The notes under the pieces: model-generated
What the model was told of the DNA's origin: nothing
Databases searched by the model: none
The model's input: only the letters and a program-made list of their open reading frames with translations
Position numbers and translations under genes: made by a program
From: Candidatus Bathyarchaeota archaeon
GTDB lineage: Archaea; Thermoproteota; Bathyarchaeia; Bathyarchaeales; Bathycorpusculaceae
Assembly: GCA_963833575.1 (NCBI GenBank)
Contig: CAWHXY010000007.1
Coordinates: 416,001-480,000 of the forward strand
DNA length: 64,000 nt
Direction of reading: 5' to 3'
In this document: in pieces, positions 28,367 to 61,753 of the stretch
How the letters are laid out: every line of letters begins with the position of its first letter
How positions within the stretch are numbered: position 1 is the first letter of the stretch

Positions 28367-28444
28367 TGGTGGGGCCGGCCGGATTTGAACCGGCGTCTAT
28401 AGCGCCCGAGGCTACAAGCCTGGACCAAGCTAGCCGACGGCCCC
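28367..28444 (-). tRNA. tRNA-Pro(CGG), intronless, CCA encoded
   Basis: Reverse complement GGGGCCG…GTAGC-CTCGGGC-GCTAT…GGTTCAAATCC…CGGCCCCACCA folds as a cloverleaf. Confidence 0.95.
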
Positions 28445-33527: not shown

Positions 33528-33846
33528 GGCGGTGGATCTTAGGCGGTGGGGTAGGGGTCCATTGTACCGTAAACCCTCTATACGACGGGCTGACATCTGC
33601 GGATGAGGCGCCGAAGGCCGTTTGGATCTTCATTTCCGAAACATTGACTATCCGTCCTTTGGGGCTGGCGGTCAATGAGCTGCTTCCGTAGGGGAGTTGC
33701 GTCATTGTCTACCAGGCGAACCTGGCTAGGCTCGGGAGAGAGCAACCTAAGTTTGGACGTTATGCGCTCAAGGGGATGCGGGTAAGAGCGTAGGGTTTGG
33801 ATGGTCCAGGCGGAGTCTGGGTGTCAAACTGCAGTGGTCCACCGCT
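33528..33846 (+). ncRNA. ffs: Archaeal signal recognition particle (7S) RNA
   Basis: GC-rich ~320 nt island; ends pair (GGCGGTGGA / TCCACCGCT); helix-8 motif AGGCTC-GGGA-GAGAGCA; TATA-like TTAAAG about 27 nt upstream. Confidence 0.9.
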
Positions 33847-42347: not shown

Positions 42348-42653
42348 ACTCTTATCTGCGTTAAAGCAGCGTGTGACTTTATCTTTTAAGCGTTTTTAAC
42401 ATGAGGGAATATACATTAAAAGTGTTTTTCATAGTTCTCAATTTAACTAGAGAAGAAAATGCTACAATAGTCTTTTTGATTTGAATTTTGGGTTTGCTGC
42501 GGCTCTGGGCATTTTCTTCGTTAAATCTTTGAAAACGCTTCTTTAAAATAAAAACGGTGTAGTGGAGGTAGTGTCTCCAGTGAAGGGGCGTTTTAGTCTC
42601 ACCCAAATTATTGCCTGACACTTCGAGAAGCTGGTGGGTGGAGCTGGAATTAA

Positions 42654-44264
42654 TTATGTCACGGCGAAATTGGTCTTTCCTGCAAAACTTTGATACCCTT
42701 TCATTACGACATTGGTTAGTATTGTCCAAGTTCCCGTTGGAGTTCCGCTACGTGATAATTGATAGTTAAAATTGGCTACACCATTAAAGGCTGTATTTTT
42801 GTTCTGGGTCCAAACTGTCGAACCACTTGGATTTATGATGCTAACTGTTACGGATGCGCCTTGCAATGATTTTCCACTTATTGCGTCTTTCACATTAACT
42901 GTTATTGAAACAGAAGAACCTAAGTTGTATGATTGTTTGTTTGTATTTGTTGTGGCGGTTAATGTCGGAATTGGTTTTGGAGTTGATGTGGGGTTTGGAG
43001 TAGCGGTTGGTGTTGGAGACGGAGAAGCAGTAGGTGTAGGAGATGGTGAAGGAGTGGGTGAAGGCGACGGAGTTGTTCCATCGGAAAGTTGGAAGCCAAA
43101 GTGAACGTCTATTATTTGAGAAGAGGTTATGGGACCAAACTCGTTGTCAGCAAAGTATACGTTGTCATTTACAACATCTATTGCCATCCACCTGTCATTG
43201 AAACCTAAACTATTGCTTATTGCAAATAGAGGTATCATTGTTTGAGAAGTCATGTTCCATAAATATATGGTTGGTTGGAATAATTCTTGTCTTGCACATA
43301 TTTCCCACAGAAACATTGATTGTGAATCAATAGCTTCTATTGCTGGATGGTCTTCAGCTGTGGTTTCTGCAAATCCTGAGTCATACATTTGCCAATTTCC
43401 AGTTGTGCTTTTGTAAATAAAGCGGTATGTACTTACTCCTGAAGTTTCATTCGAAAGTAATCCTACTGTTATCCAATTGTTGTTTGCAGATATATGCGGA
43501 AAGTATGCTCCTGGCCCCAGATTATAAGCATAGGTTACATATTCAGTTGACCAACTTGCTAAATCTGCTGAGCTGAAAACTTTTGTTGTTACCCATCCGT
43601 TGCTTCCGCCCCCATTGTTCATGTAGGAAACATATACTTTGCCGTTAAAAATGACTGGTGTAATTTCTAAACCGCTATTCGTATCTTTTCCAATATTTAC
43701 AAAATGATAAGCTGATGGATTATTTGCTTGGTTGGGGTTTACTGACCACACACCTACAGAGTGATTTTGCATATCACAACCAAATAACAGCAAGTTGTGT
43801 AAATTGTCGTAGATAGTTTGTGTAAAGGCATTACATGTTGAGAAAGCCATTGTAACATGAGTAACTTCAGCTAAAGTTGTTTCATTGTAAACAGCAAGCA
43901 CAGTATTAGATGTTTGATACCCAATCATTGGAACATAAATCAAACCATTATAAACATACGCTTCAAAAGCCTCAGCAGTGCTTTGAGTTAAATCTGAAAG
44001 AGGCGTGGAACTTATTAACGACCCAGATAAGTCACTTTTTCTCAATGTATTGTCACTTCTACTTGAGACCATCCATAAGTACCCATCATATATGCTGGGA
44101 TAACTCAAATGGGCACTGTTGTCCGTACTAAGTACTGTATAGGAAGTTGGCACGATATCTGAACTTGATAAACTTCCCTTTGCACTATCTGCATAAATTG
44201 TTGTAACAAAAATTGAACCACAAAACATTAAAATCATAATAATAGTTATTTTTTTATATTTCAT
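42654..44264 (-). CDS. Secreted protein: beta-rich domain, Pro/Thr linker, C-terminal Ig-like domain
   Basis: SD AGGTGA then MKYKK-hydrophobic signal; PSPSPTP linker; TNKQSYNLG…V.ITV.V domain; no C-terminal TM. Confidence 0.75.
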   Translation of the reverse strand: MKYKKITIIMILMFCGSIFVTTIYADSAKGSLSSSDIVPTSYTVLSTDNSAHLSYPSIYDGYLWMVSSRSDNTLRKSDLSGSLISSTPLSDLTQSTAEAFEAYVYNGLIYVPMIGYQTSNTVLAVYNETTLAEVTHVTMAFSTCNAFTQTIYDNLHNLLLFGCDMQNHSVGVWSVNPNQANNPSAYHFVNIGKDTNSGLEITPVIFNGKVYVSYMNNGGGSNGWVTTKVFSSADLASWSTEYVTYAYNLGPGAYFPHISANNNWITVGLLSNETSGVSTYRFIYKSTTGNWQMYDSGFAETTAEDHPAIEAIDSQSMFLWEICARQELFQPTIYLWNMTSQTMIPLFAISNSLGFNDRWMAIDVVNDNVYFADNEFGPITSSQIIDVHFGFQLSDGTTPSPSPTPSPSPTPTASPSPTPTATPNPTSTPKPIPTLTATTNTNKQSYNLGSSVSITVNVKDAISGKSLQGASVTVSIINPSGSTVWTQNKNTAFNGVANFNYQLSRSGTPTGTWTILTNVVMKGYQSFAGKTNFAVT

Positions 44265-44399
44265 TTTTCTCACCTTTCTTGATAAGCGAGCGCTTCCCAT
44301 CAGTCTAAATGTCTATTACTTTCTGTTTTTGTTTTATGTTTTGTGGGTCAATTGTCCATAAAAAAGAGAAATTGCGAAAGACGCATCCAATAGCATTAA

Positions 44400-48145: not shown

Positions 48146-48240
48146 GGGTTTGCTGAGGCTCTGGCACAGAAATATAGGACCAAAGAATGTAAAACACGAA
48201 CGTGAACATCGTGAATTTTCTCCAGAGCCTGTTCAGCCCC
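48146..48240 (-). ncRNA. Conserved bulge-helix-bulge stem element, copy 1 (candidate processed RNA)
   Basis: Minus strand GGG-GCTG-AAC-AGGCTCTGG…57 nt…CCAGAGCCT-CAGC-AAA-CCC, 64 nt after stop of 48305..50926. Confidence 0.65.
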
Positions 48241-48304
48241 AATTTTTTTCTTCATTTTGTTTTAGAGGACTAAAAAAAGGGAAAGTGGTTTTTGTTGTTG
48301 GTGT

Positions 48305-50926
48305 CTATGGTCTTTTTCTGAGCATCAGTAATGCCAGTATTGCGAATCCAATTATGATGAGGACAATTATGGCTACTACTGAGGGAATGAAGTATAGGTC
48401 AGCTGTGGATGGTGCTGGGGTTGGAGCTGGCGATGCTGTTGGTGCTGCATTTGCAACGTTGAATGATGTTTCAGCGGCAGATGGATAATATGATTCGGAG
48501 CCTGCGAATTTAGCGTAGACGGTGTAGTCGCCAGATATGTTCGGAGTCCATGTGAAGGTGAACATGCCGCTGCCGTCGCTTGTGGTGGTGCCTATTTGTC
48601 TGTAGTTGCCGTTTGCGTCAAGAACGTAGATGCTGACTGGAACACCTGTCACGTTTGTTGGGCATTGCTGTTGCATGTATACGTATTCCATCCAGCCACT
48701 TTGGCTTGCGTCAGAAACAGCTGGGACACCGCTGGGGAAGTTTGCGGCTTGCGCTTGTTGTTGGGTGCCGGCAGAGATGTCGGTTACTGTACCTCGTATC
48801 ACCATTGATGAACCAAACGGTTGAGCTTCGACGGTCATAGCGCTGGGTCCTTTGCCATAGGCGTATAGTTGGTTGTCATATGCATTAAGAGCTATCATTG
48901 TGCCATCTACAATGGGAGCCGCGTTGGTAACGTCAAATCCTAGTATCTCCCAGATTAACGATCCATCAGTAATGTTTATGGCCAGTTGCTGTGCGCCGCG
49001 GAATAATGGTGGACTGTACTCATGACCTACGTTGAGGAAATAAACTCCATCAGCAATGGATCCTCCGCTAAAGACCCAGAGAGGCCACACACCGTAAGGA
49101 GTATCAGATCCCGCTTCGCCAATGAGAGTGTTAGTGTTTGTGTACCAGTTTTCTTTTCCAGTATTTACGTCCACAGACCATATGTCGCCTCCGAAGCCTA
49201 TGATGTATAGTGTTCCATTAGCAAGTTCAGTCTGGTAGCCGCCGATGCTGTCGTAAGGATCCGGCACAGGGTAATTCCCATTATCACCAGTGAGGGCTAC
49301 TGGACCCCATACCAAAGATCCAGTATTCAAACTGTAAGCTCTGATTGTTCCCAAGTCTGCATCAAGTCTAACGTAGACGCCGTATCCAACTTTGGTGATT
49401 TGGTCTCTTGCGAAGGCATTTAGCGTTCGATTAGTTATCCATAGCTGTGCACCTGTGTTTGCATTGAAACCTGCTTCGATTCCAAAGCCAGTATTGAAGG
49501 TTCCTGACACGTCCGGAGCAGGAACCGCTGTCATTAGCACTACGCCGCTGTTGACACTGTTAATGGCGAGAGTCTGTGGCAGAGGAACATTTGAAAGGCT
49601 GGTAGGTAACGGTACTGTCCAAACTATTCCACGTTTGAAGTCAATGACTTGGTTTTGTAGAGGTCTCCAATTCCAGTTTGCCACGGTAATTCCTGGCACG
49701 AATTGGCTGGTGGGGTAAAGAATTGCTTGTGTCGAGTTCCACATGTTCAGTGTTGGGGCGGTTGGAATAGTTGAGTTGACATAGTAACCTATCAAATTCC
49801 CGCTGGCATCCTCTGTAAGTGTCATTGCAGAACCGTTTACAATGCTTAGGATGAAGTTTCCCGTTTGGGCATCATACATATTCCAAACAGCGCCATTCAC
49901 ACTGGGACCAGTGCCGAGGTTAAAGGCGTTTATCAGCAGGGGGTTGCTCCATAAGTATGCAAGAGAGCCGTATTGGTTGGGGTTCACCATTTGGAGAAGT
50001 TGCCCGCATCTTAAAATGTCGGTTGTATTCTTTGTCCATAGTGTTTGTCCCGTGCGTATGTCTACTGCAACCCAGCCGCCTGGAGTAGTGTAGGAATTTG
50101 GGTATGTTACGTAATACATGACGCCGTTTATGATAATTGGCGCCCATTTTGGCTCATACTGCGATGTTGAATAATAGTTGCTTGTGTCAGTTCCGCCGAA
50201 TTCTCCGCCAACTAAACCTCCAAACGCTACCGGCTTTGTCCACAAGATGTGGGCGGCTTTTGGCGCTTGAGAGTATGGATTATAGTCTCCGGTGATGTTG
50301 TATTTTCCAGTGTTTGCAAATGATGATGCGCCGAACCCAAGCCAGTTACCCATAATAGTAGACCACAGCACGTTTCCCGATTGCACTGGACGAGTCCAGT
50401 AGCTTGTTGGAAGCGGATTTAACGGAAGAAGTGGAACTGGGTTCTGTTGCACTGTAAGATATGCTACTTCGCTAGTGGAAGCCAGAAAAGAGTCATTAAC
50501 ATATGGACTGGCTCCTCCTCCATTTTCGCCTGTTAATATTTGACTGGGAAAGTTGAACACGAAAGAGTAGTTGCCTAGTTGGCTTGGCGTGTAAAGCGTG
50601 AATGTTCCACCTGTATCGTCCGATGTGAATGGTCCTAGTGTTTCTGTGGTTCCGTCAGGATGTGTAACTGTCACCATAAAGTTGTGCCATCTGTCTCCCG
50701 TTGCTGCGCTGGCTGAGGGCGGGGGTATTTGTAGCCACATGCCTATTGTGACTTGTTGACCGAGACCTGCAGGGTTAGGTGCAACGTTAACGAAGGCTTG
50801 CGTTGGAATCTGCCATGCTGGCGTATGTGCATTAGTAGTTGGCATTAATGTCATTGAAGCTGCCATTGAAATTGTTAAGAGTAAAGCAATCATAATAGCT
50901 GCTATTTTATTTTTTATAATTGTCAT
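48305..50926 (-). CDS. Membrane-anchored PQQ-like beta-propeller surface protein, paralog 1
   Basis: Signal peptide, PNPAGLGQ Ig-like domain, repeated 'D..TG…W' propeller blades, GHEYSPPLF, C-terminal Ig domain, TM and RKRP. Confidence 0.85.
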   Translation of the reverse strand: MTIIKNKIAAIMIALLLTISMAASMTLMPTTNAHTPAWQIPTQAFVNVAPNPAGLGQQVTIGMWLQIPPPSASAATGDRWHNFMVTVTHPDGTTETLGPFTSDDTGGTFTLYTPSQLGNYSFVFNFPSQILTGENGGGASPYVNDSFLASTSEVAYLTVQQNPVPLLPLNPLPTSYWTRPVQSGNVLWSTIMGNWLGFGASSFANTGKYNITGDYNPYSQAPKAAHILWTKPVAFGGLVGGEFGGTDTSNYYSTSQYEPKWAPIIINGVMYYVTYPNSYTTPGGWVAVDIRTGQTLWTKNTTDILRCGQLLQMVNPNQYGSLAYLWSNPLLINAFNLGTGPSVNGAVWNMYDAQTGNFILSIVNGSAMTLTEDASGNLIGYYVNSTIPTAPTLNMWNSTQAILYPTSQFVPGITVANWNWRPLQNQVIDFKRGIVWTVPLPTSLSNVPLPQTLAINSVNSGVVLMTAVPAPDVSGTFNTGFGIEAGFNANTGAQLWITNRTLNAFARDQITKVGYGVYVRLDADLGTIRAYSLNTGSLVWGPVALTGDNGNYPVPDPYDSIGGYQTELANGTLYIIGFGGDIWSVDVNTGKENWYTNTNTLIGEAGSDTPYGVWPLWVFSGGSIADGVYFLNVGHEYSPPLFRGAQQLAINITDGSLIWEILGFDVTNAAPIVDGTMIALNAYDNQLYAYGKGPSAMTVEAQPFGSSMVIRGTVTDISAGTQQQAQAANFPSGVPAVSDASQSGWMEYVYMQQQCPTNVTGVPVSIYVLDANGNYRQIGTTTSDGSGMFTFTWTPNISGDYTVYAKFAGSESYYPSAAETSFNVANAAPTASPAPTPAPSTADLYFIPSVVAIIVLIIIGFAILALLMLRKRP

Positions 50927-51118
50927 TTTTCTTTTCTCCTTTTCTTTCTGCTAACAATTTATGCGGGCGAAGTCAATTTAAGACCTGCGATAGAACAACA
51001 AAAATGTCTGACAAAGAAAACAAAAAGCAGCAGAATAGTCAATATTGTACGAAAAAAGACAACAAATATAAAACAGAAAAACACTTAAATGACACTTCAC
51101 TAACAAAATCACGAATGG

Positions 51119-52105
51119 TTGTTCTCAACGAAAGAAATTGATCATATTGATGCAATAATCATAAAGGAACTACTAAAAGACGGCCGAAGAAACTTCACTG
51201 AAATTGCAGAAGAATGCAACCTATCAAAAAGTATGATACAGAAACGGTACAGAGAACTAAAAAGCGCAGGCATAATTGTTGGCGCCACGGTTCAACTGGA
51301 TTACCCAAGTTTTGGCTTCAATGTAGTGGGAAACATTTTGTTCAAAGTCGAGCCTCAGCAAGCGGACCAGATCGTAGAGTACGTGAACAAAATGCCAAAC
51401 ATCCATGCCGCTTGGCGAACAGCCAGAACAAACGAAATAAATGCTGTAGCAGTAATGGAAGACCTTGAAAAGTTAGACAAAATCAAAGAAAGCATTAGAA
51501 AAATACCGCCAGCTTCGGAACTAAGAACGTATATTTGGACAGGCATAAGAAACATTAGAGAAAACTTGGCGATAACACCTCTGCAAATGCCGAACAAAAT
51601 GGACATAACAAACGAACATGTAACGAATAAGTCCAAAAGCACGGAAAGCAAAATTGACGAAACTGATAAGCGCATAATTGAGAAGCTTGCGGTTAATGGT
51701 AGAATATCTTTTAGGAAACTGGCGAAAGAACTGGCGATATCCACTGATACAGTTGCAAGAAGATATGAAAAACTGAAAAGAAATGGCATAATTAAGGTTT
51801 TAGTTCAAGTGGATACATCAAAGATTGGGTACAATGGTTACGCTACTTTCTATATTGCATTTCTACCTCAAAGCAGCTTGATTTCAATGGTAGAGAATCT
51901 TTGCAAAATCCCGGATGTAGTTTTGATTGTTCAGACCAGTGGAAGTTTTGACCTCTTGGTGGAAGCAATGATAAAAGATCTTGATCAATTATTATCGGTC
52001 CAAGATAGCATCACAAACATGCCTGGCGTCGCAAGGAGTGAAATGCATTTAAGTAGAACTAATGCCGTTTTTCCCACTCCCCGCGAGTATATATCAACAT
52101 TCTAA
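51119..52105 (+). CDS. Tandem (double) Lrp/AsnC transcriptional regulator
   Basis: Two HTH plus RAM units (IDHIDAIIIKELLKDGR…; IDETDKRIIEKLAVNGR…); divergent from paralog 1. Confidence 0.9.
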   Translation: MFSTKEIDHIDAIIIKELLKDGRRNFTEIAEECNLSKSMIQKRYRELKSAGIIVGATVQLDYPSFGFNVVGNILFKVEPQQADQIVEYVNKMPNIHAAWRTARTNEINAVAVMEDLEKLDKIKESIRKIPPASELRTYIWTGIRNIRENLAITPLQMPNKMDITNEHVTNKSKSTESKIDETDKRIIEKLAVNGRISFRKLAKELAISTDTVARRYEKLKRNGIIKVLVQVDTSKIGYNGYATFYIAFLPQSSLISMVENLCKIPDVVLIVQTSGSFDLLVEAMIKDLDQLLSVQDSITNMPGVARSEMHLSRTNAVFPTPREYISTF

Positions 52106-52612
52106 AAGAATTGTTCACGAGTTTGGATACTCTCAAACCTTTCTTACCACGAATTACATTTCTTGACATAAAGACTTTACCCAGCAGGACAATCGTTTTT
52201 TTCCACAAACATTCGTTTGAACGCTCTTTTGTTCACTTGATTCTAATCAGGACAATGCGGGGCTGACATACGTCCCTCAATCAATTCATTTTTTGTGTAA
52301 CTTCCAGTTCAATAAATAAAATTCTTATTAACTTTGTATCAATAAGTTAAATTCAACATTAATTATTATATCATACGAGTTCTGTTTTGGCAAATCATAA
52401 ATATCGCGTGCTATTTGGGTTCCAAATAGAGAATTGAAGTGAGAGCAGCCGCAGGCACAGAACGTGTCCTTAAAGACTAATCCTCTAAAACTGCTCATAA
52501 ACTAAATTCCTCTTAAAAATTCTTTGTTTGCTAAATCCTAACTCCAAAAATAGCACCCTTTCAGTCGCCAAAGCGGCTGAACTTCACTTCCAAAATGTAT
52601 TAAAGAACGCAA

Positions 52613-53038
52613 ATGGAGGTGAAAAAAGTGAACAAAAAGGCTTTGCTTGCCTCAATCTCGGTACTCTTGGCTTCAAGCTTAATTGCGGTGCCAGTTTTGG
52701 CCTTGAGTTTGCCGTCAGATTTTACGGCAGGGGGATGGGGGTATGTTAACATTCCTGGACATATTTATTATTCAGGCGAGACCATACGAAGCGTAACAAC
52801 GACTTTGGGGACACAGGTCGTGATAACTATACCTAGTTTTCTGCCGAATGAAGCATTTTGGAGTGTTAGTTCTTATATCATATATGGCGGTGTTGAAACT
52901 ATAAAGACTGGAATTGGATATTGGGGTTACACAGGCATCCATCTTAGTCCAATAACCGTCATTGTTCACCTAAACGCACCATACCTTGTTGTTGCATACG
53001 GTTCAGGCGTCTACTTCATCGGTACCTTGCAATCTTAA
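52613..53038 (+). CDS. Secreted hypothetical protein
   Basis: NKK-hydrophobic signal peptide ending VLA; GGAGGTGA SD suggests GTG start at 52628. Confidence 0.65.
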   Translation: MEVKKVNKKALLASISVLLASSLIAVPVLALSLPSDFTAGGWGYVNIPGHIYYSGETIRSVTTTLGTQVVITIPSFLPNEAFWSVSSYIIYGGVETIKTGIGYWGYTGIHLSPITVIVHLNAPYLVVAYGSGVYFIGTLQS

Positions 53039-53169
53039 GAAAGCGCTAAAAGCATGTTTAATTCTATCTCTTTTTTAGTTTCTCTATTTAGCCTTTGAAG
53101 CTCTACACTAATCACTGCAAAGTTATAGATTAAATTACTAACAAGTAACCCTCTTTTCTCTTGTTTGCG

Positions 53170-53202
53170 AACGATCTAACGATCTAACTAACGAGCTAAC
53201 GA
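53170..53202. repeat. Short tandem repeat (AACGATCT)2-AACT-AACGAGCT-AACGA
   Basis: Directly visible in intergenic DNA. Confidence 0.7.
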
Positions 53203-53381
53203 AAGAATGCGTGGGAGAGAGTGATAAGAAGAGTGAGTCAGTAGTCGTTAGTCATGGTTATTGATAGAGAGAAAGATTAAATTTTAGTGCACACACACAC
53301 TTGTTCTTCGGTTTGTGGCTTTAGGATTCTTCAGCGGTTAAACCTAAAAGAGAAGAAAATGCAGAAAAACTAAACATGAAA

Positions 53382-53621
53382 TTAGCCTAAAGAACGGGGT
53401 TGCGGTTGACCATGCGTCCAACGCCACTGCATAGTAAAGAAAAAGAACAAAAGAACAATCGAAACCACAACGAGAAATAAACCTAATACTAAAAGGGGCA
53501 ACGCAAACAATGAATCAGCAGAAAAGTAGAGTCGGGAAATTGCTAGGGACAAGATGCCTGAGATACCGAACGGAAGAGCCATTAAGCCGTAAGTTCGTGA
53601 ATTAAACCATTTTGCGGACAT
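53382..53621 (-). CDS. Small two-TM membrane protein
   Basis: SD GAGG, two hydrophobic helices. Confidence 0.55.
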   Translation of the reverse strand: MSAKWFNSRTYGLMALPFGISGILSLAISRLYFSADSLFALPLLVLGLFLVVVSIVLLFFFFTMQWRWTHGQPQPRSLG

Positions 53622-53964
53622 TCTTATCCCTCAGTTACAGTGGGCTTTATCAGTTTAAGAGTTTTTGCTATGAAATCAACATGGACTCTGTTTTTGCACA
53701 AGTAGAATTATCTTATAATAGTGGTGCGTAAGGCGCGCGCTTGGCGATGAAAATCCCCCTGATAATATGAACTATCTCGCCCCCTACATTTGGTACAATA
53801 CTTGTATTTACAGAATAAAAAAAGAAAAGGTTTAGGAAGCCCAGATAACAAAAACTGTCAAGTTGACTTCTCAAGAATGCAAAGGTTTCCATACAAAAAA
53901 GCGAAATGCCCTTCTTAAAAAACATTATACGGTAAGCAAGTACTAGAAACTTGAAACTGTTGGG

Positions 53965-54219
53965 GTGATTTTTATAAACAGAAATCAAGAAAATATAGCA
54001 ATTGAAGATTTAGAAAATAATACTGATAAGATTTTTAGCAAAATGCCGGTTTATAGGTGTTCATGTGGAATCGAAATTTTGGTTATTCCAGATTTACATG
54101 TCATGGTAAAAGCTATAATGAAGCACTTAACGGAACATAAAAAAGTAACAGGGCAGTGCTTAACTGAGGAACTTCTGACACAGGAAATCCTAAAAATCAT
54201 AGGTGACGTCTTCGTTTGA
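53965..54219 (+). CDS. Small putative Zn-binding protein
   Basis: CSCG…HLTEH pattern. Confidence 0.6.
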   Translation: MIFINRNQENIAIEDLENNTDKIFSKMPVYRCSCGIEILVIPDLHVMVKAIMKHLTEHKKVTGQCLTEELLTQEILKIIGDVFV

Positions 54220-54245
54220 ACTCCTTTGAGTTCTTATTCTAGGAC

Positions 54246-54348
54246 AAAAAAGAAGAGCGGACTTTTTTTAATCCTTGGGAGAGAAATCATGGCATAGAAT
54301 AGGAGTGAGAAGGCTTTTTCTTTTAGGTGAGGATTAACAAAGTCCGCC
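54246..54348 (-). ncRNA. Candidate small RNA (long terminal stem, anti-SD loop)
   Basis: IR GCGGACTTT/AAAGTCCGC plus TTAATCCT/AGGATTAA; minus-strand TTTATC box 24-29 nt upstream; U6 tract downstream. Confidence 0.55.
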
Positions 54349-54792
54349 AAGATATGTTGGGTGTTTCAAAAGATAAATGGTTGTGAGTGGCTGCTTACAA
54401 CAACAAAGGAAAATAAGAATTGAGATTTATTTTTGCTTCTTATGCTCATGATGTTTCAGAAAAAAATCGCCCTTAGACTGCCCATGTGTGGTGGAAAAAC
54501 TGAATAATTAGCCAATATGAAAAAATAGAAAAATTGCTTGTAACTAACCTCTTAAGCGCGCGGGTTTAGTCATCAATTATTTCAAGCATGGGCTGACCAC
54601 AACAAGTTGGATTCTTTTGTTCATTGAAATTCTGAGATTCAGTGCAGTCGCAAGTATCATAATCAGCCTTTATCTTCTTACCGCACGTCTTGCATTGGAA
54701 TGTAGGCATAACTCATCTATTATAACTTTAGGAAACATACCAAAAAACTTTGCTATTTTTCTTAGCACGCGCTATAAATCGGGCATGTGTCG

Positions 54793-55491
54793 CTATTTGG
54801 TCGCTAAAGGGGCATGCTCTTTGTTTTTCGCCTTAATTACGAAAGCAAAGATGATTACCACACCAGTTGAGATTGCTGTCGCAATTGCAACTGAATGCTG
54901 CTGGTAGAAGGGCAACTTTGAATTATTCCCATAAGAGTTTAAAAAGTTATAGTGGATTACGCTTACATTCTCAGTAGCGCCAGTCACGGCGACCGTTCCA
55001 TCGGGCAGCAGGTTCCAGCCGTCACCTTCACTAACAACCGTGTGGTTCCCAAAAACAACAGTCCATTCAGCAGTTGAAATCGATTCTCTTTGTCCAGAGA
55101 AAAGACCAAAGTTCAAGATTTGTTCACCATGACCATCAACTTTAAATCTTAACCTTTCGCTCTGAAAGGTAGTGCCATTATTAATTAGGAAAGAGAAAAT
55201 TGTAACATTGGAGTTTTGAGTTGAAATCCTAAAATCTCTAAGCATCTGTGACCCGTTGAGTTGTAAATCAGTGAAAACCCAAGTGTTATTTTCAAAGACT
55301 GCCGTAGAATAGGAGCCATTTACTGCAAAACTAACCGCGCCATCGAGTACCGGAATATCAAATTTGTCTGCAGGACTAAAAGTCACACTTGTTTGCGCCT
55401 GCGTATTGGGAAAGACACAAAGTAATAAGAAAACAGTAATTGCGGCAACTCCACTTGTGCTCTTGATTTTGTTCACCACCAAACTCCTCAC
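54793..55491 (-). CDS. Secreted, C-terminally anchored hypothetical protein
   Basis: Signal peptide, beta-rich domain, C-terminal TM. Confidence 0.7.
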   Translation of the reverse strand: MRSLVVNKIKSTSGVAAITVFLLLCVFPNTQAQTSVTFSPADKFDIPVLDGAVSFAVNGSYSTAVFENNTWVFTDLQLNGSQMLRDFRISTQNSNVTIFSFLINNGTTFQSERLRFKVDGHGEQILNFGLFSGQRESISTAEWTVVFGNHTVVSEGDGWNLLPDGTVAVTGATENVSVIHYNFLNSYGNNSKLPFYQQHSVAIATAISTGVVIIFAFVIKAKNKEHAPLATK

Positions 55492-55507
55492 TACTTACTT
55501 TGTTAAT

Positions 55508-55619
55508 TGGTTTGCTGAGGCTCTGGAAAACTTTAAAGGAGAAAAACAAGCAAATGAAAATGCTCTATCACGAAACTATGGCAGGTATCGTGAATTTTAA
55601 CCAGAGCCTTCTCAGCCCC
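55508..55619 (-). ncRNA. Conserved bulge-helix-bulge stem element, copy 2
   Basis: Minus strand GGG-GCTG-AGA-AGGCTCTGG…74 nt…CCAGAGCCT-CAGC-AAA-CCA, 61 nt after stop of paralog 2. Confidence 0.65.
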
Positions 55620-55680
55620 ACATTTTTATCCGATACTTTCAAGACTAAAAAAGGGGAAATGGATTTTTTGGTTGTTGTTT

Positions 55681-58266
55681 TTATGGCTTCTTTCTCATTA
55701 AAAGTAATCCGACTATAGCTATTGCGATGATTATGGCTATGACGCCTACTGCTAAGTACATCATTAGGTCTGTTGGTGTTGCGTAGTTTAGGGGTGCTGG
55801 TACGGGAGTTAAGGTTGCTGAGGCCGCTTGTACGGTTACGGCAGTTTCTGCTGACGAGCCAAAGTAAGAGTTAGATCCTGCAAAGGTAGCTGTTACCATG
55901 TAGATTCCGGGTACTGTAGGTGTCCAGTCCAATGCAAATTTCCCATTCATGTCGCTGACGGTTGTGCCAATGACGTAGGTGTTGTGGTTTGAGTCAAGAA
56001 CGCTTAGAGTTACCGGGACACCTGTAGCATTCATAGGTTCAGGTTGTTGGTCGTAGAGGTAATCCATCCATGCGGTCATGCTGTCGTCGGATATTGCGGG
56101 AGTGCCTGCTGCAGGGATACCTAAGCATGTGCTACCTGATGACTGGTCCGTAACAGTACCTTGAACTAGAACTGTCGCTCCTAATGTTTGAGCATCTTGA
56201 GGCGCAGAGACTGTTGTGGCAGTTTGTCCTTGACCATAAGCGTATAACACGTTGTTGTATGCGTTCGGTTTCACGAAGATGCCATCTGCGAGGAGTGCGC
56301 TAGCTCCGTTAGAGTCATCAAAGCTTGAATCGCTCCAAACTAAGGCTCCTGTAGTGGCGTTTATTGCGTATACTTGTGCGCCTATAAACATGGGTGGACT
56401 ATATGTATGTCCTCCTGCAACGAATACTTCGCCGCCGCCGACTGCCTCAACATGTACCAAAGGCCATATACCATATGGAGTATCGTATCCTGCGCTACCT
56501 GTTGAAAATTGCCAGACCTGTTTTCCTGTGGTAATATTATATGCATGTACTTGTCCACCGAAGTCAGATGCGTATAGCATACCGTAAGCAATGATCGGTT
56601 TATAGTTGACAAAGTATGCCCAAGGCGGGCTATTGTAGGGATCTGAAGTCCAGACTGATTGTCCAGTAAGCGCGTTGTAGGCACTCCAGGTTAATGATTC
56701 GTGATTGAATTCGAACCACATTCCATTTAAAATGCCATTCGTGTCAATTCTGGCCCATGCGCCTACCGTTTCGTTTATCGGACCCCATATTTGTTGTCCT
56801 GTGATCGAACTGTAACCTGCTATTATGCGCCAAGGTGGTAGCCAGCTAAGCCCTCCGTTCAAAGTGCTGTCAACTGAAGTCATGAGGATCATGTTTGAAC
56901 CGATTGCTCCAATTCCAAGAGTTGGGCTGAATGTCACGCCAGATATGTTGGTAGCTAGTGGCATTGACCACATTATTCCTTTACGAAAGTCTATTTGTGC
57001 ACCCTGCGTTGGTCTCCATTGCCAAGCTGCTGGACCATTGGTTCCGACTAGTATACATTGCGTTGAGTTCCACATGTTAATTGTAGGTGCATGATACGCA
57101 TTCGCTGTGCTTGTGTTAACATAGTAGCCAATCAAATCGCCACTGTCATCTTCCGTGAGAGTAAAAGTTGTAGCATTAACAATACTTAGTACGTAGTCTC
57201 CAGTCATTGCGTCAAACATGCCGTAGGTAGTTCCAGTGTTTGGACTAACCGTTGGCAATGTGCTCCAGAGGTATGGGATGCCGCCGTACTGGTTTGGTGT
57301 GATGTAGTCTAATAGTTGACCGCATAATAAGGGCAGAGTAGTGTTAATGAACCATAACTGTTTTCCAGTCCTAAGGTTTAAAGCCATCCAACCTGCGGGA
57401 TTAGACGAGCTTCCAGGTGTTTCTTGGTAGTAGAGTATACCGTTTATGACAATTCCGCCAAATTTCGGTTCATATTGTGAAGTTGAATAGTAGCTGCTGC
57501 CATATTCACTGCCGCCAAATTCGCCGCCAAGTAAGCCTCCAGCTGCTAGTGGTTGTGTCCATAAGATGTGAGCACTAGTTGGAGCGGTAGTATAGGGATT
57601 GTAGTTTCCGGTGTAGTTGTATTCGCCAGTAACCATAGTAAAACCAACTGCTGCAAGGCCAAGCCAATTTCCGCTAATTGTGTACCAGTTTAGGTTCTCG
57701 CCGTAGATTGGTCGTTGCCAGTAACCTGTTGGAAGCGGAGCAGTCGACTGAGAGGGTATGGGTGCCTCTTGTACAGCGAGCGTCACTGCTGAACTCGTGC
57801 TAGGTTGATAGTAATCTCCAATCAATGTCTGTATTGCTGCAGAGTAGCCAGCTGGTGGTGGATTGCTACCTGTTAACGTTTGTCCAGAAAAGCTGAACTG
57901 GAATGTATAATTGCCCAAGACGGCAGGTGTGTAAGTTGTATGTGCTCCTCCTGTGTCATCGGATGTAAACGGTCCTAGCGTTTCAGTGGTGCCATCAGGT
58001 TTGGTAACTTTTACTATGAAATTCTGCCATCTATCACCATAAATTGTAGCCGCTGTTGGAGGTGCCTTGTCAATCCAGAAGTTAACGTAAGCAGCTTGAC
58101 CTACGCCTACAGGGTTAGGCTCGACGCTAATGTACGCCCATGTTGGAATATTAAATGGAGGTGTATGCGCGTTAGCGCTTGGTATTAACATTGTTGAAGC
58201 TGACATCGAAATAGTCATCAAAATAACAATCGTAATAGCTGCAATTCTGTTTTTTAGATTTAACAT
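55681..58266 (-). CDS. Membrane-anchored PQQ-like beta-propeller surface protein, paralog 2
   Basis: Same architecture as paralog 1 (shared KPDGTTETLGPFTSDDTGG, STSQYEPK, NQYG, YSPP); ATG 58266 behind AAGGA. Confidence 0.85.
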   Translation of the reverse strand: MLNLKNRIAAITIVILMTISMSASTMLIPSANAHTPPFNIPTWAYISVEPNPVGVGQAAYVNFWIDKAPPTAATIYGDRWQNFIVKVTKPDGTTETLGPFTSDDTGGAHTTYTPAVLGNYTFQFSFSGQTLTGSNPPPAGYSAAIQTLIGDYYQPSTSSAVTLAVQEAPIPSQSTAPLPTGYWQRPIYGENLNWYTISGNWLGLAAVGFTMVTGEYNYTGNYNPYTTAPTSAHILWTQPLAAGGLLGGEFGGSEYGSSYYSTSQYEPKFGGIVINGILYYQETPGSSSNPAGWMALNLRTGKQLWFINTTLPLLCGQLLDYITPNQYGGIPYLWSTLPTVSPNTGTTYGMFDAMTGDYVLSIVNATTFTLTEDDSGDLIGYYVNTSTANAYHAPTINMWNSTQCILVGTNGPAAWQWRPTQGAQIDFRKGIMWSMPLATNISGVTFSPTLGIGAIGSNMILMTSVDSTLNGGLSWLPPWRIIAGYSSITGQQIWGPINETVGAWARIDTNGILNGMWFEFNHESLTWSAYNALTGQSVWTSDPYNSPPWAYFVNYKPIIAYGMLYASDFGGQVHAYNITTGKQVWQFSTGSAGYDTPYGIWPLVHVEAVGGGEVFVAGGHTYSPPMFIGAQVYAINATTGALVWSDSSFDDSNGASALLADGIFVKPNAYNNVLYAYGQGQTATTVSAPQDAQTLGATVLVQGTVTDQSSGSTCLGIPAAGTPAISDDSMTAWMDYLYDQQPEPMNATGVPVTLSVLDSNHNTYVIGTTVSDMNGKFALDWTPTVPGIYMVTATFAGSNSYFGSSAETAVTVQAASATLTPVPAPLNYATPTDLMMYLAVGVIAIIIAIAIVGLLLMRKKP

Positions 58267-58648
58267 TTTTTTTCTTCCTTTCATTTTTGGTTGTAAGAAG
58301 CATTTGTATCTGCGTTCTTCCAACTAAACAATCATCTTGTTAGAGTAAAGCTTAAATGATTTGCTTATCTCTAAACCTAGAAAAAAACTTAAAAAAATGT
58401 CCAGAGCTAAGATAATAAGAAAAATTTTGAATTATTACAAAGCAAATCGTTTAAAAAAACGCGCAGTAAAATTTTCTTGATTATCAATCAAAGATTATTT
58501 TAAGCTCTCACTCATAGAGTTGACTGGAGATAACCCATGAAAAGGCAAATTAACCTTTTCGGGGGCAACACAATTTATCTGAAGCATCGCCCGCAGAGCT
58601 GAATATGTTGCAATAGTTTTTTTGATTTGAAAATATGGTATGAATTTT

Positions 58649-58757
58649 GGGTTTGCTGAGGCTCTGGAAAACAAGGAGAAAATAAAGCAAATGCAAATGC
58701 TCTATCTTCCAAATACTTAGCTATCTCTTGAAATTCAACCAGAGCCTGCTCAGCCCC
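58649..58757 (-). ncRNA. Conserved bulge-helix-bulge stem element, copy 3
   Basis: Minus strand TGGG-GCTG-AGC-AGGCTCTGG…71 nt…CCAGAGCCT-CAGC-AAA-CCCA, 63 nt after stop of paralog 3. Confidence 0.65.
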
Positions 58758-58820
58758 ATCCATACTCATTGACTTCAAAAAAATAAAAAAGGGAAATGAT
58801 TTTTGATATGCATTTTTGGT

Positions 58821-61541
58821 TTATGGGTGTTTTCTTGTGACAAGAATTGCGAGAACAGCGCCTATTACGATTATCGCGATTATGATTGCTATCCCTATGT
58901 ATTCAAGTGTGCTTTGAGTGGCTACGTTGCCAATCGCTGTTGCTGTGGGCACTTGTGTTGCTTGTGGGAGGCTTGCGTAGAAAGCTGTTGTTGCAGATGA
59001 TTCATAGTAAGATTGGGTGCCTGCGAAAGTGGCTGTAACTGTAAAGTTGCCTGGTATTGTTGGTGTCCACGTAAGACTGTAGAAACCGCTTGGAGTTGTC
59101 GTTGCAGTGCCGATTGGGTAGCAGTTGCCGTTAGAATCAGTGACCGCTATCGTAACTGGAACGCCGGTTATGTTTGATGGCATTACCTGCTGCTCGTAGA
59201 CTGCTTCCATGAACTGTGTCATGCTAGCGTCGGATACACATGGAAGACCGTTGGGGAAGTTCGCTGCGATTGCTTCTTGCTTTGAGCCGGCTGAGATGTC
59301 CATAGCTGTGCCAGTGATTGTTACTGGCGTGGATGTTGTAACGGCATTTTGTGGAGTTGAAACCGTTGTTGCGCTGGGTCCTTTGCCGTATGCGTAGATT
59401 TGGTTGTCGTAGGCGTTCATAACTGTGGCGATACCGAAGGCGATTGCAGGGGGGTTTGTGACATCGAAACCCAATATTTTCCACACAAGTTGTCCAGTTG
59501 TAATGTTTATAGCCAATTGTTGAGCTCCGTGAAACAGCGGTGGACTGTATTCGTGACCTTCCGGTACGTATAGGATTCCGTCGGCGACTGTACCGCAATC
59601 GAAAGTCCATAAGGGCCAAGTGCCGTAGGGTGTGTTAGTTCCTGCATCACCTTGTAGCGTGTTGGTATTTGTCTGCCAAATGATAGTTCCGTTTGCCATG
59701 TTAATAGCCCAAATATCTCCTCCGAAGCCATAAAGATACATTATGCCATTAGCAAGCACGTTTCTGAAGCCTCCTGTTGAGTCGTATGGATTACAATTGG
59801 TTAACTGCAGAGTCCATAATTGAGAGCCTGTTGTGGCACTGTAACCGATGGCTTGGTAATTATCTTGGTTGATTTCCACGTAGATTTCGGAAGAAGGTGA
59901 GGTTATGTCAACTCTGGTGCCAGGTGCTTCTGTTCGATTAACTGCCCAAAGCTGTTGACCTGTTCTGGAACTGTAGGCTGCTTCAATCTGAAAACCGGTG
60001 TTGAAAAAGTTTTCACCCGGAGTTATGCAAGTCAAAAGTACCACACCACTATTTACGCTGCCCCCGATGTCTGAACCTGTTGCTCCAAAAGACAAGCTTT
60101 GAGGCAGAGGAACGCCCGTAATGTTTGTGGCTATTGGCATTGACCATTCTAGTCCATAGCTAAAGGGTATGATAGCGCCTTGTGGCGGTCGCCATTCCCA
60201 AATGTTGGTGTTGAAGTTTGTTGCTAAGTCATAGTTTTGAACGCATAATGTTGAGTTCCATTCGTTTAATGTTTCTGTTGTAGAGTTAATGTAGTAACCG
60301 ATGAGATTCCCCTGATCATCTTCTGTAAGAGTCATTGCGGTTCCGTTGACGATACTTAGAATATAGTTTCCTGTTGATGCATCGAACATGTTGTAGGTTG
60401 TGGACGCAGTGGCGGCGTGGGTAAATTGGTCGACCATAACGGTAGGTGCAATGTTTGTGGCTGCTGCTACCATGGCAGGTGTTCCAGTACTCCAAAGGTA
60501 AGTAAGCGCTCCGAATTGGTTTGGACTCACGTAATAAAGCGTCTGTCCGCATCTTAACACTGTACAGGGTCCTGCTGATGCAACGTTTGGTTGAAGCGTG
60601 GAAGTTGAGCCTATTGGGGATGGTAGCGTAAGCGGATAATCCGTCGTCCACAGAGTCTTACCAGTGTACAAGTCAACTGCGACCCACCCTGTGGGGTTAG
60701 CGATAGTGCCTTGGTATTGAGTATAGTACATGACGCCGTTCATTATTATGGGTGCAAATTTTGGTTCGTACTGAGAGGTTGCATAATAGTTGCTTGTTCC
60801 GGTTGCTCCAAATTCTCCTCCAAGTACACCTCCAGGTGCTGCGGGTCTGGTCCACATAATGTGAGCGGTTGTGGGCGATGTAGTGTAAGGATTGTAGTTT
60901 GATGTACAGTTATAATTTCCTGTATTCGCGCTAAATATTTGTCCCAAACCAAGCCAGTTTCCTGTAAGAATAGACCATGGGTATACGTTTTCGGAGTTTA
61001 CGGGTGTTTGCCAGTAGTTGGTTGGAAGTGGATTAGTAGGCAACGAAGGTATTGGTTGCTGCTGTACAGTTAGCGTTGCACTTATGTTGCTAGGTTCAAA
61101 ATAGTCTCCGATGAATGCTTTTGTGAAGGCTGTTGTTGCTGGACTGAGATTGCTGCCTGCTAGAATTTGTCCTGGAAAAGTAAAGAAGAAGCTGTAATTT
61201 CCCAGTTGAGAAGGCGTATACGTGGTGTACGTTCCACCAGTATCGTCGGAAGTAAATGGTCCGAGTGTTTCAGTTGTGCCGTCCGGTTTTGTTACTACCA
61301 CTTTGAAGTTTTGCCATCTGTCACCATACTGCACGTTCGCTGTCGGAGGGGGTTGAGCTAGCCACATGCCAATTGTTACTGTTTGTCCGACGCCTGCAGG
61401 GTTAGGTGCAACATTAAGGTATGCTATGGTCGGCAAAGAAATGTTACCGGCTTTAGCTAAAGGAGCTGCGTGAGATGCCATCGAAAGTATGAAGAATATT
61501 ACAATAGTGATTGCTGCAATTTTATTTTTTCGTGTTTTCAT
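58821..61541 (-). CDS. Membrane-anchored PQQ-like beta-propeller surface protein, paralog 3
   Basis: Same architecture and motifs; ATG 61541 behind GGAG. Confidence 0.85.
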   Translation of the reverse strand: MKTRKNKIAAITIVIFFILSMASHAAPLAKAGNISLPTIAYLNVAPNPAGVGQTVTIGMWLAQPPPTANVQYGDRWQNFKVVVTKPDGTTETLGPFTSDDTGGTYTTYTPSQLGNYSFFFTFPGQILAGSNLSPATTAFTKAFIGDYFEPSNISATLTVQQQPIPSLPTNPLPTNYWQTPVNSENVYPWSILTGNWLGLGQIFSANTGNYNCTSNYNPYTTSPTTAHIMWTRPAAPGGVLGGEFGATGTSNYYATSQYEPKFAPIIMNGVMYYTQYQGTIANPTGWVAVDLYTGKTLWTTDYPLTLPSPIGSTSTLQPNVASAGPCTVLRCGQTLYYVSPNQFGALTYLWSTGTPAMVAAATNIAPTVMVDQFTHAATASTTYNMFDASTGNYILSIVNGTAMTLTEDDQGNLIGYYINSTTETLNEWNSTLCVQNYDLATNFNTNIWEWRPPQGAIIPFSYGLEWSMPIATNITGVPLPQSLSFGATGSDIGGSVNSGVVLLTCITPGENFFNTGFQIEAAYSSRTGQQLWAVNRTEAPGTRVDITSPSSEIYVEINQDNYQAIGYSATTGSQLWTLQLTNCNPYDSTGGFRNVLANGIMYLYGFGGDIWAINMANGTIIWQTNTNTLQGDAGTNTPYGTWPLWTFDCGTVADGILYVPEGHEYSPPLFHGAQQLAINITTGQLVWKILGFDVTNPPAIAFGIATVMNAYDNQIYAYGKGPSATTVSTPQNAVTTSTPVTITGTAMDISAGSKQEAIAANFPNGLPCVSDASMTQFMEAVYEQQVMPSNITGVPVTIAVTDSNGNCYPIGTATTTPSGFYSLTWTPTIPGNFTVTATFAGTQSYYESSATTAFYASLPQATQVPTATAIGNVATQSTLEYIGIAIIIAIIVIGAVLAILVTRKHP

Positions 61542-61753
61542 TTTTCTTTTCTCCATAATCCACAATATTTTCAATTTCTTTATAATACTTTTCAAAAGTG
61601 CAGAAAATAGTGAACATAACCGTTAAATTTGTGGATTTCAAACGACTATTTCACACATTCGCGCGCGCTAGATGTAGTCAATTCCCGAAAAATCCATGCT
61701 GGTTACTTACTAATTTTTTAGTACCGTCATGTAACTGATTTTGATGATAAGTA

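Follow-up and report, generated by a model that had tools for sequence, protein, structure and literature searches.

The canonical helix–bulge–helix–bulge–helix (hBHBh') motif of archaeal RNA splicing, as described in the accessible part of PMC7714728, consists of a 4-base-pair (bp) helix, two 3-nucleotide (nt) bulges and flanking helices of at least two Watson–Crick pairs, and the two-subunit endonuclease of the TACK group (Thaumarchaeota, Aigarchaeota, Crenarchaeota and Korarchaeota, with Bathyarchaeota listed among the members) takes even broader substrates. Outside tRNA and rRNA, the same part of that paper names only two introns bounded by a bulge–helix–bulge (BHB), namely the cbf5 mRNA intron and the intron in the 5' untranslated region (UTR) of HVO_1309 of Haloferax volcanii, which is 46 nt long, was detected as an RNA circle and is a substrate of the recombinant endonuclease. 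The available portions of two further papers report a C/D box small RNA (sRNA) in the tRNA-Trp intron together with rRNA, tRNA and insertion sequence-associated circles in model archaea (PMC12558985), and rRNA circles in Bathyarchaeia (PMC12918454). Here we describe three BHB elements, A, B and C, on the minus strand of a 64,000-nt stretch of Bathyarchaeia DNA (the whole of which is called the window below), each lying behind a gene for a β-propeller surface protein, and the family of copies to which they belong. The elements are very probably excised and circularized by the tRNA-splicing endonuclease EndA and the ligase RtcB, and the circles may act as antisense RNAs on the translation starts of the same gene family.

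Archaeal tRNA introns, represented in this genome by that of tRNA-Arg(CCG), resemble the elements in the 4-bp helix, the 3-nt bulges, the cut position, the intron-side stem–loop and the use of EndA with RtcB; unlike them, the elements lie outside tRNA and rRNA as a 27-copy family on a protein-gene family, their exons have no evident function and it is the excised part that carries conserved information. The HVO_1309 intron is likewise a BHB-bounded segment in an mRNA-associated untranslated region, but, so far as the accessible text of its source goes, it is a single, unrepeated locus in a 5' UTR for which no antisense content is reported. Again according to that portion, the cbf5 pre-mRNA intron of the Crenarchaeota shares BHB-dependent excision from a protein-gene transcript within the TACK group, but it lies within the coding sequence, restores the reading frame and belongs to a single gene. 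The sRNA of the tRNA-Trp intron is, in the available part of its source, a functional small RNA freed as a BHB-excised circle, but it is a methylation guide with C/D boxes, whereas the proposed target of the elements is an mRNA initiation site. Our literature search found no published description of such a BHB family, the supplementary tables of circular RNA papers, which might list non-rRNA circles of Bathyarchaeia, being outside its scope. In bacteria, regulatory sRNAs mask the Shine–Dalgarno (SD)/AUG region of mRNAs, and sRNAs derived from 3' UTRs are known. The elements share with these a pyrimidine-rich seed, unpaired or looped, that is complementary to SD and AUG and encoded at a gene's 3' end, but their RNA would be circular, made by tRNA splicing, supplied one per paralog and aimed at its own paralog family. 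Three things set the elements apart from the known single cases: hundreds of copies over three families of an uncultured Bathyarchaeia order, an RNA-level junction, and sequence content that points to a function as circular RNAs against the ribosome-binding sites of the gene family that carries them.

The three elements have in common the minus-strand reading GGG-GCUG-NNN-AGGCUCUGG…CCAGAGCCU-CAGC-AAA-CC(C), and are placed as follows.

48146–48240, minus strand: element A, hBHBh' module; predicted excised RNA 48150–48231, 82 nt; covariance-model E 3.1e-17
Element A, 5' side: GGG 48240-38; GCUG 48237-34; bulge AAC 48233-31; AGGCUCUGG 48230-22
Element A, 3' side: CCAGAGCCU 48164-56; CAGC 48155-52; AAA 48151-49; CCC 48148-46
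55508–55619, minus strand: element B, bulge AGA; predicted excised RNA 55512–55610, 99 nt; covariance-model E 1.7e-27
58649–58757, minus strand: element C, bulge AGC; predicted excised RNA 58653–58748, 96 nt; covariance-model E 4.6e-22

An earlier note on this DNA, made from the letters alone, had placed the elements at these positions with this reading, and both are exact in the window sequence. Its distances of 64, 61 and 63 nt from the stop codons agree with open reading frame (ORF) ends at 48305, 55681 and 58821, its predicted RNAs and loops (57, 74 and 71 nt) were reproduced, and folding bore out the mirror geometry that it had described for the plus strand. The elements have the central helix, both bulges 3' of their central strand and the flanking helices of the hBHBh' definition; in element B the outer helix reads GGG/CCA, leaving two pairs only. 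The arms are far too frequent in the window for chance: the 5' arm pattern has three exact matches and, with up to two mismatches, eight matches against 0.77 expected (0/100 shuffles reached eight), and the 18-nt 3' arm has three exact matches plus one with a single mismatch against 0.02 expected. The fold z-scores of the elements lie between -2.3 and -3.5, the two strands folding about equally well.

Conservation of the structure was assessed on an alignment (A3) of 83 distinct copies, none of them chosen by exact arm match, taken from the window's genome, from the genomes of the genus with one or two copies each, and from two divergent genomes with all their copies; another alignment (A2), in which most loci had been picked by exact 3' arm match, was biased and was set aside. 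Helix cells are paired in 93.5% of cases, compared with 26-52% when the partners are slid by one to three columns, changes on both sides occur at 14/16 pairs and 0/500 shuffles reach the observed values, figures that are inflated by the fitting of the alignment to the model structure and by the relatedness of the copies. Compensatory variants are also plain by eye, as in GUUG/CAAC, CUCAAG/CUUGAG and AGACUCUGG/CCAGAGUCU. The central helix GCUG/CAGC is paired at 97.3% with compensatory UA and CG variants, the outer helix GGG/CCC at 92.3% with compensatory variants at 3/3 pairs, and the inner 9-bp helix at 92.2% with covariation at 9/9 pairs. Bulge 1 has three letters in 82/83 copies (AGA in 26, AAA in 25, AGU in 23, and others) and bulge 2 in 83/83, with AAA in 77, so that the bulge lengths and the 4-bp helix on which the earlier note had staked its reading are conserved in the homologous copies. 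The minimum-energy fold favours a register of 5 bp plus 8 bp over 4 plus 9, one U having two As available as partners; ten copies have C in place of that U, paired with G, which excludes the 5-bp register and leaves only 4 plus 9. The 4-bp plus 9-bp register drawn originally is thus favoured by covariation and, as shown below, by an RNA junction. In the copies of genome G040 (e.g. L058 and L187), which represents a second genus in another family of the order, the outer helix extends to 8 bp, GAAAUGGG/CCCAUUUC, compared with mostly 3-6 bp in the window's genus.

The same genome supplies both a processing standard and the enzymes. Intron-bearing tRNAs are present (ARAGORN), among them tRNA-Arg(CCG) at G000:C4:608391-608490, the precursor of which folds as UCGGC-CUCC-GG↓a…ggag-uu↓A-GCCGA, where arrows mark the cuts: a 4-bp helix, 3-nt bulges 3' of the central strands and cuts after the second bulge nucleotide. 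The geometry and the cut positions of the elements are those of this intron. Two tRNA_int_endo ORFs of 203 and 198 amino acids (aa) score over the family cut-off. The two EndA subunits are encoded at G000:C7:351219 and G000:C6:37209, and because there are two of them EndA is probably heterotetrameric; RtcB is encoded as well (G000:C4:637563-638873, 494 aa, E 6e-177). The proposal that the elements are EndA substrates therefore now stands on the hBHBh' architecture, covariation in 83 copies, the tRNA-Arg intron geometry and the encoded enzymes.

Contigs from 16 RNA runs, all peat or permafrost metatranscriptomes, contain 5-7% of the region's sampled words, a share that is no evidence on the strain, and four of these runs were compared with the window at 88% likeness. 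The back-splice search suggested in the earlier note succeeded in two of the peat runs, in joints that map onto element C. In run X3, a contig is joined from 58747 back to 58653 with one letter between (A, plus strand) at a depth of 4.31; in run X4, the jump back from 58717 to 58653 is bridged by 32 letters, at a depth of 8.18, and these letters are a diverged copy of 58718-58748 with the third bulge letter at its end. On the gene strand the two joints both read …CCUCAGCAA/UAGGCU…, i.e. the junction CAGCAA/UAGGCU (the slash marks the joint): the 3' cut lies behind the second A of the AAA bulge, and the sequence continues with the third nucleotide of an AGU bulge, one of the three commonest forms of bulge 1. 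This fits the 4-bp register and not the 5-bp one. In DNA, the 15-nt junction core occurs once each in 8/61 genus genomes, and the six loci fetched are unrelated coding sequence without arms, which makes a DNA origin of the junction unlikely; a permuted or tandem DNA copy as its source was rejected, all six of the eight core loci that were fetched being chance matches in coding sequence. Relative to the genes, coverage by RNA contigs is low at the elements and spacers, although relatives' contigs at 88% cannot show absence. With the predicted back-splice junction present in contigs of two peat metatranscriptomes, we consider excision and circularization by EndA and RtcB to be well supported and very probable.

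A pattern search of the window's own 2.75-Mb genome found 16 copies and a looser script more, and a covariance model built on the 16 found 27 copies in this genome. The model also matches in 21/24 other genomes of the genus and in 1/16 genomes from other families of the order. An order-wide draw with stricter filters gave matches in 17/35 of family f1, 17/35 of f7, 1/25 of f6 and 0/55 of nine other families, amounting to 7/63 genera in three families. Among 80 public records listed with the exact 18-nt arm, 71 are titled as Bathyarchaeota or Bathyarchaeia metagenome-assembled genomes from peat, fen, bog or soil, one is an 'uncultured archaeon' and eight are bacterial chance matches; the covariance model matched none of seven bacterial loci in which the 18-mer occurs by chance. 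Rfam 15, C/D box sRNAs included, has nothing at the elements at gathering thresholds (best permissive matches E 3.4 and 4.3), and no C/D boxes were found in them.

Several loci document how copies vary. Two tandem elements, G000:C4:949043-949168 and 949341-949451 on the plus strand, stand about 190 nt apart between two paralogs, the second being the more diverged. An orphan element at G000:C4:745034-745163 (minus strand) keeps a gene-end relic, …ACGACCAUUAG, together with the T-tract, and lies about 200 nt from an intron-bearing tRNA-Ser(CGA) (C4:744701-744822). Within the window, a 3'-arm relic, CCAGAGCCGCAGCAAACC, at 42491–42508 on the minus strand has one mismatch and no 5' arm; it lies about 145 nt behind a 548-aa MG2-domain ORF (42654-44300, minus strand) and is followed by the flank AAAAUUCA…AUCAAAAA, the same as that of copy C. 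As its 5' arm is missing, we take it to be a decayed copy behind a shorter relative of the surface-protein family.

The excised RNAs, or interiors, are 70-115 nt long (median 95) and variable in sequence. One or two interior hairpins covary (CACGA/UCGUG to CACGC/GCGUG; GAGCA/UGCUC to ACGCA/UGCGU), and a single interior tract is conserved, …UUUGCAUUUUUCUUUUCUCCUAA…, with the pyrimidine design CAU-(5-12 nt)-YUCCU. The 5' regions of the paralogs read …UUAGGAGAAAAGAAAAAUG(C/A)AAA…, and from this match the tract is the reverse complement of the paralogs' SD sequence, spacer, AUG and first codons. Its YUCCU end resembles the 3' end of the genome's 16S rRNA, …GAUCACCUCCU. The loops, which the earlier note had called divergent, are indeed variable, but they have not merely diverged, and a conserved sequence antisense to an initiation site had been missed. 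The tracts of the window and the genes in front of them are listed here.

~48189–48175, minus strand: antisense tract of element A, degenerate, CAUUCUUUGGUCCU
55556–55536, minus strand: antisense tract of element B, CAUUUGCUUGUUUUUCUCCUU
58693–58673, minus strand: antisense tract of element C, CAUUUGCUUUAUUUUCUCCUU
48305–50926, minus strand: paralog A, 873 aa; PQQ_2 β-propeller, Ig-like domains, C-terminal membrane anchor ending RKRP
50940–50924, minus strand: initiation region of paralog A, AAGGAGAAAAGAAAAAUG; 22-nt, 95% antisense match to interiors
55681–58323, minus strand: paralog B, 880 aa as listed; likely start the second AUG at 58266, after AAGGAAGAAAAAAAA (58280-58267)
58821–61595, minus strand: paralog C, 924 aa as listed; likely start AUG 61541, after GGAGAAAAGAAAA (61554-61542); 16-nt exact antisense match of the initiation region to interiors

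To locate antisense sites, we masked the elements and compared the reverse-complemented sequences of all 27 interiors with both genome strands. Family gene starts make up 7/8 of the best sites at 36 bits or more, 8/13 at 34 or more and 11/22 at 32 or more; the opposite strand gave 0, 0 and 0, and reversed or complemented queries gave no family match and no site of at least 36 bits. We also took the start windows (-28 to +12) of 2003 ORFs and recorded the longest exact complementary run to any interior. Runs of at least 12 nt occur in 18/32 family ORFs and 32/1971 others, runs of at least 14 nt in 10/32 and 2/1971, and runs of at least 16 nt in 8/32 and 1/1971, compared with 0/32 and 1/1971 at 14 nt or more for reversed interiors. 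Of the seven top targets, three are element-less paralogs, and the idea that each element is tuned to its own gene was rejected, own-locus pairing being no better. In predicted circular folds, measured in the 75/83 copies with a recognizable motif, the mean unpaired probability is 0.85 for the anti-SD and 0.63 for the anti-AUG part, compared with 0.46 for the whole circle, and in many copies UCUCCU is the predicted loop of a UUUUCUUUU/AAAAGAAAA hairpin. A further string, GUGAUAG(U)AGCA, occurs in interiors of genera g1 and g16 (e.g. 55571-55561, minus strand), and is kept across two families where the surrounding interior differs.

Tract and gene starts both vary among lineages. G040 has its own version of the motif, UUUUUUCAUUUUUUCACCUU, and of the gene starts, AAGGUGAAAAAAUGAAAAAA: the tract appears there as GUUUUUUCAUUUUUUCACCUUC or …CAUUCCUUC, and the gene starts read …GAAGGUGAAAAAAUGAAAAAA… or …GAAGGAAU…AUG. 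A search of that genome with the reverse complement of a 20-nt tract, allowing up to three mismatches, gave 24 matches, of which nine are elements and four of the other 15 are family starts. Genus g16 differs from g1 in tract and gene start alike, and g21 shows the design CAU-(Y-rich)-UCUCC again, opposite GGAGA-(R-rich)-AUGAAAC; loci of g18 were left out, as the simple arm pattern failed in most and few complete genes lay in the stretch. Duplex energies are -24.3 and -26.0 kcal/mol within a genus and -19.1 and -20.5 kcal/mol across genera, with controls of -19.9 and -16.8 (reversed) and -18.2 and -14.3 kcal/mol (shuffled).

The three window ORFs are paralogs, each with a PQQ_2 β-propeller, Ig-like domains and a C-terminal membrane anchor. 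A homologue of this family ends 40-131 nt upstream in 58/84 distinct copies, including most of those from the second family represented by G040, and in the window's own genome 18/27 copies stand directly behind an ORF of at least 825 aa. The covariance-model scan proposed in the earlier note thus yielded the 27 copies, the linkage to the gene family and the helix covariation; its statement that every intact paralog carries an element holds for the window (3/3) and fails for the genome, where 17/31 family ORFs of at least 600 aa do so. In each of the three cases a T-tract lies between gene and element.

48272–48280, minus strand: T-tract CCUUUUUUU, separating the stop codon of A from element A
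55645–55660, minus strand: T-tract, conserved motif AUUUCCCCUUUUUUAG, separating the stop codon of B from element B
58777–58797, minus strand: T-tract, conserved motif UUUCCCUUUUUUAUUUUUUU, separating the stop codon of C from element C

This tract is probably the terminator of the gene. Thirteen of the 14 element-less paralogs were examined, and they keep the conserved UUUCCCUUUUUUAG tract where the element is missing, which assigns the T-tract to the gene and makes the element an addition after it. One such site, on G000:C7 behind a family gene ending at 389418 (minus strand), has the T-tract and the leader start AGAAAAGCAUUGGAG without an element and looks like a clean loss. The leader in question is purine-rich, AAAAGCAAUGGAGAAAAAAU, and conserved about 30 nt 5' of the GGG in many copies (e.g. 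55620-55645 and 58758-58776, minus strand); lying between T-tract and element, it looks like a ribosome-binding site or may contain a promoter. A role for this leader (…AAUGGAGAAAAAAU) in masking the antisense tract was dropped, as the predicted pairing probability is 0.03. Beyond element B, a 232-aa ORF without a Pfam match (54793-55491, minus strand) starts 17 nt past the element, with GAGGAG just 5' of GUG codons; if element B were spliced from a read-through transcript, this gene would be brought beside the 3' UTR of the surface gene.

Our preferred mechanism is as follows. A minus-strand transcript would fold into the canonical helix–bulge–helix–bulge–helix motif, EndA would cut after the second nucleotide of each 3-nt bulge and RtcB would join the ends, releasing a circle of 70-115 nt. 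The circle would expose its pyrimidine tract (CAU, 5-12 nt of U/C, YUCCU) in a mostly unpaired stretch or a hairpin loop and, being stable, could pair in trans with the initiation regions of paralog mRNAs, those of element-less paralogs included, and so lower their translation. What we infer is how the element is transcribed (by read-through of the terminator or from a promoter of its own), which strand forms the circle, that pairing takes place in vivo and which way the effect goes. That the circles are trans-acting antisense RNAs against the initiation regions of the family is a reading that we regard as evenly poised. A more tentative and rather doubtful extension is that each expressed paralog emits a nuclease-resistant circle that looks like the 3' end of 16S rRNA and sits over the SD/AUG of mRNAs from sister paralogs, which would make the family self-policing.

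A number of observations weigh against excision followed by antisense action. The X3 and X4 junctions come from two low-depth Logan contigs of related copies, strandless and at 88% likeness, and no exon–exon junction of the predicted form GGGGCUGAG/ACCC is present among the RNA-contig rows listed. A T-tract, the probable terminator of the gene, stands between gene and element in each case and is kept by paralogs that lack the element. As a test of strand, G:U outnumbers A·C by 36 to 28 and 44 to 23, a weak lean to the sense (gene) strand. The linkage is incomplete in both directions, with 9/27 copies being orphans, second tandem copies or relics, and 14 of the 31 family ORFs of at least 600 aa having no element. 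As to the complementarity, the tract is A/U-rich and of low complexity, the three in the window rank with the weaker tracts (GGUCCU in copy A), and the rank-test p-value and statistics are overstated because the paralogs are kin. Pairing at the own locus is no better than elsewhere (-22.8 for own and -24.3 kcal/mol for other genes, permutation p 0.92). In G040 a backwards control already gives 12 matches compared with the 24 real ones (nine in elements), and ungapped 16-nt complementarity shows a modest own-genus excess in g1 and g16 and none in g21 (n=6).

Other explanations fit parts of these data. The element might work in cis, its tract closing the initiation region of the same mRNA in a read-through transcript until excision by EndA re-opens translation or trims the 3' end, with the circle as a by-product. 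The fixed position 40-131 nt behind the stop codon suits such a role, complementarity to family starts would be equally expected from it, and the HVO_1309 5' UTR offers a precedent, within the accessible part of PMC7714728, for a BHB intron in an mRNA UTR that matters for expression. Yet an element's pairing with its own gene is no better than that with other paralogs, 9/27 copies have no gene in front, the T-tract precedes the element and the circle is abundant enough for assembly in two RNA runs, and we consider a cis role unlikely. It is quite improbable, too, that the family is a neutral or selfish intron-like BHB repeat, harmlessly excised and spread with gene duplications, the likeness to start regions being a relic of an inverted duplication of the 5' end. 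Its multi-copy nature with orphans, tandem copies and decayed relics, its apparently clean loss from some paralogs and the otherwise variable interior would all be natural for such a repeat. It would not be expected, however, to keep the mirror image of SD, spacer and AUG across three families of the order in an otherwise diverging interior, to differ in its tract between genera apparently in step with the gene starts, or to hold the anti-SD unpaired or in a hairpin loop, and its site is fixed, not random: when tested as a mobile element of the miniature inverted-repeat transposable element type, the insertion sites were not scattered, 58/84 copies lying 40-131 nt behind homologous genes.

Two readings that dispense with splicing fare worse. 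An inverted repeat that acts at the DNA level or purely as structure, for instance as a recombination site or terminator hairpin, and is not processed by EndA would account for a strong stem behind the gene with z-scores of -2.3 to -3.5 and about equal strands, but a hairpin has no need of the conserved offset 3-nt bulges and 4-bp helix, G:U pairs are present, and the RNA contigs are joined exactly at the bulges in a form not seen in the DNA loci examined; we hold this reading to be very unlikely. On the plus strand, the elements read AGGAGAAAAA…AUG, as a ribosome-binding site with a start codon would, and elements A and B are overlapped by ORFs of 112 and 72 aa, which could speak for a small protein. 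The frames opened by these AUGs, however, range from 1 to 104 aa with a median of 13, the arm is entered in frames 0, 1 and 2 by 21, 27 and 17 copies, 14/83 copies have no AUG context and interior indels are not multiples of three. A plus-strand small ORF is therefore barely conceivable and was rejected on its lengths and evenly spread frames. The window also holds an archaeal signal recognition particle RNA (33530-33844, plus strand, 151.6 bits) and a tRNA-Pro(CGG) (28367-28444, minus strand), both ordinary; the former marks the DNA as archaeal.

If the circles do act as trans antisense RNAs, they would form a class of regulatory RNA that is the first in archaea to come from the tRNA-splicing machinery, a natural design for stable circular antisense RNAs and a handle on the control of a large surface-protein repertoire in abundant peat archaea. 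Should the family in addition police itself in the manner outlined above, the circles could regulate dosage or keep surface coats mutually exclusive, as an archaeal equivalent of the circuits behind antigenic variation, and the splicing endonuclease would gain a regulatory role outside tRNA and rRNA maturation.

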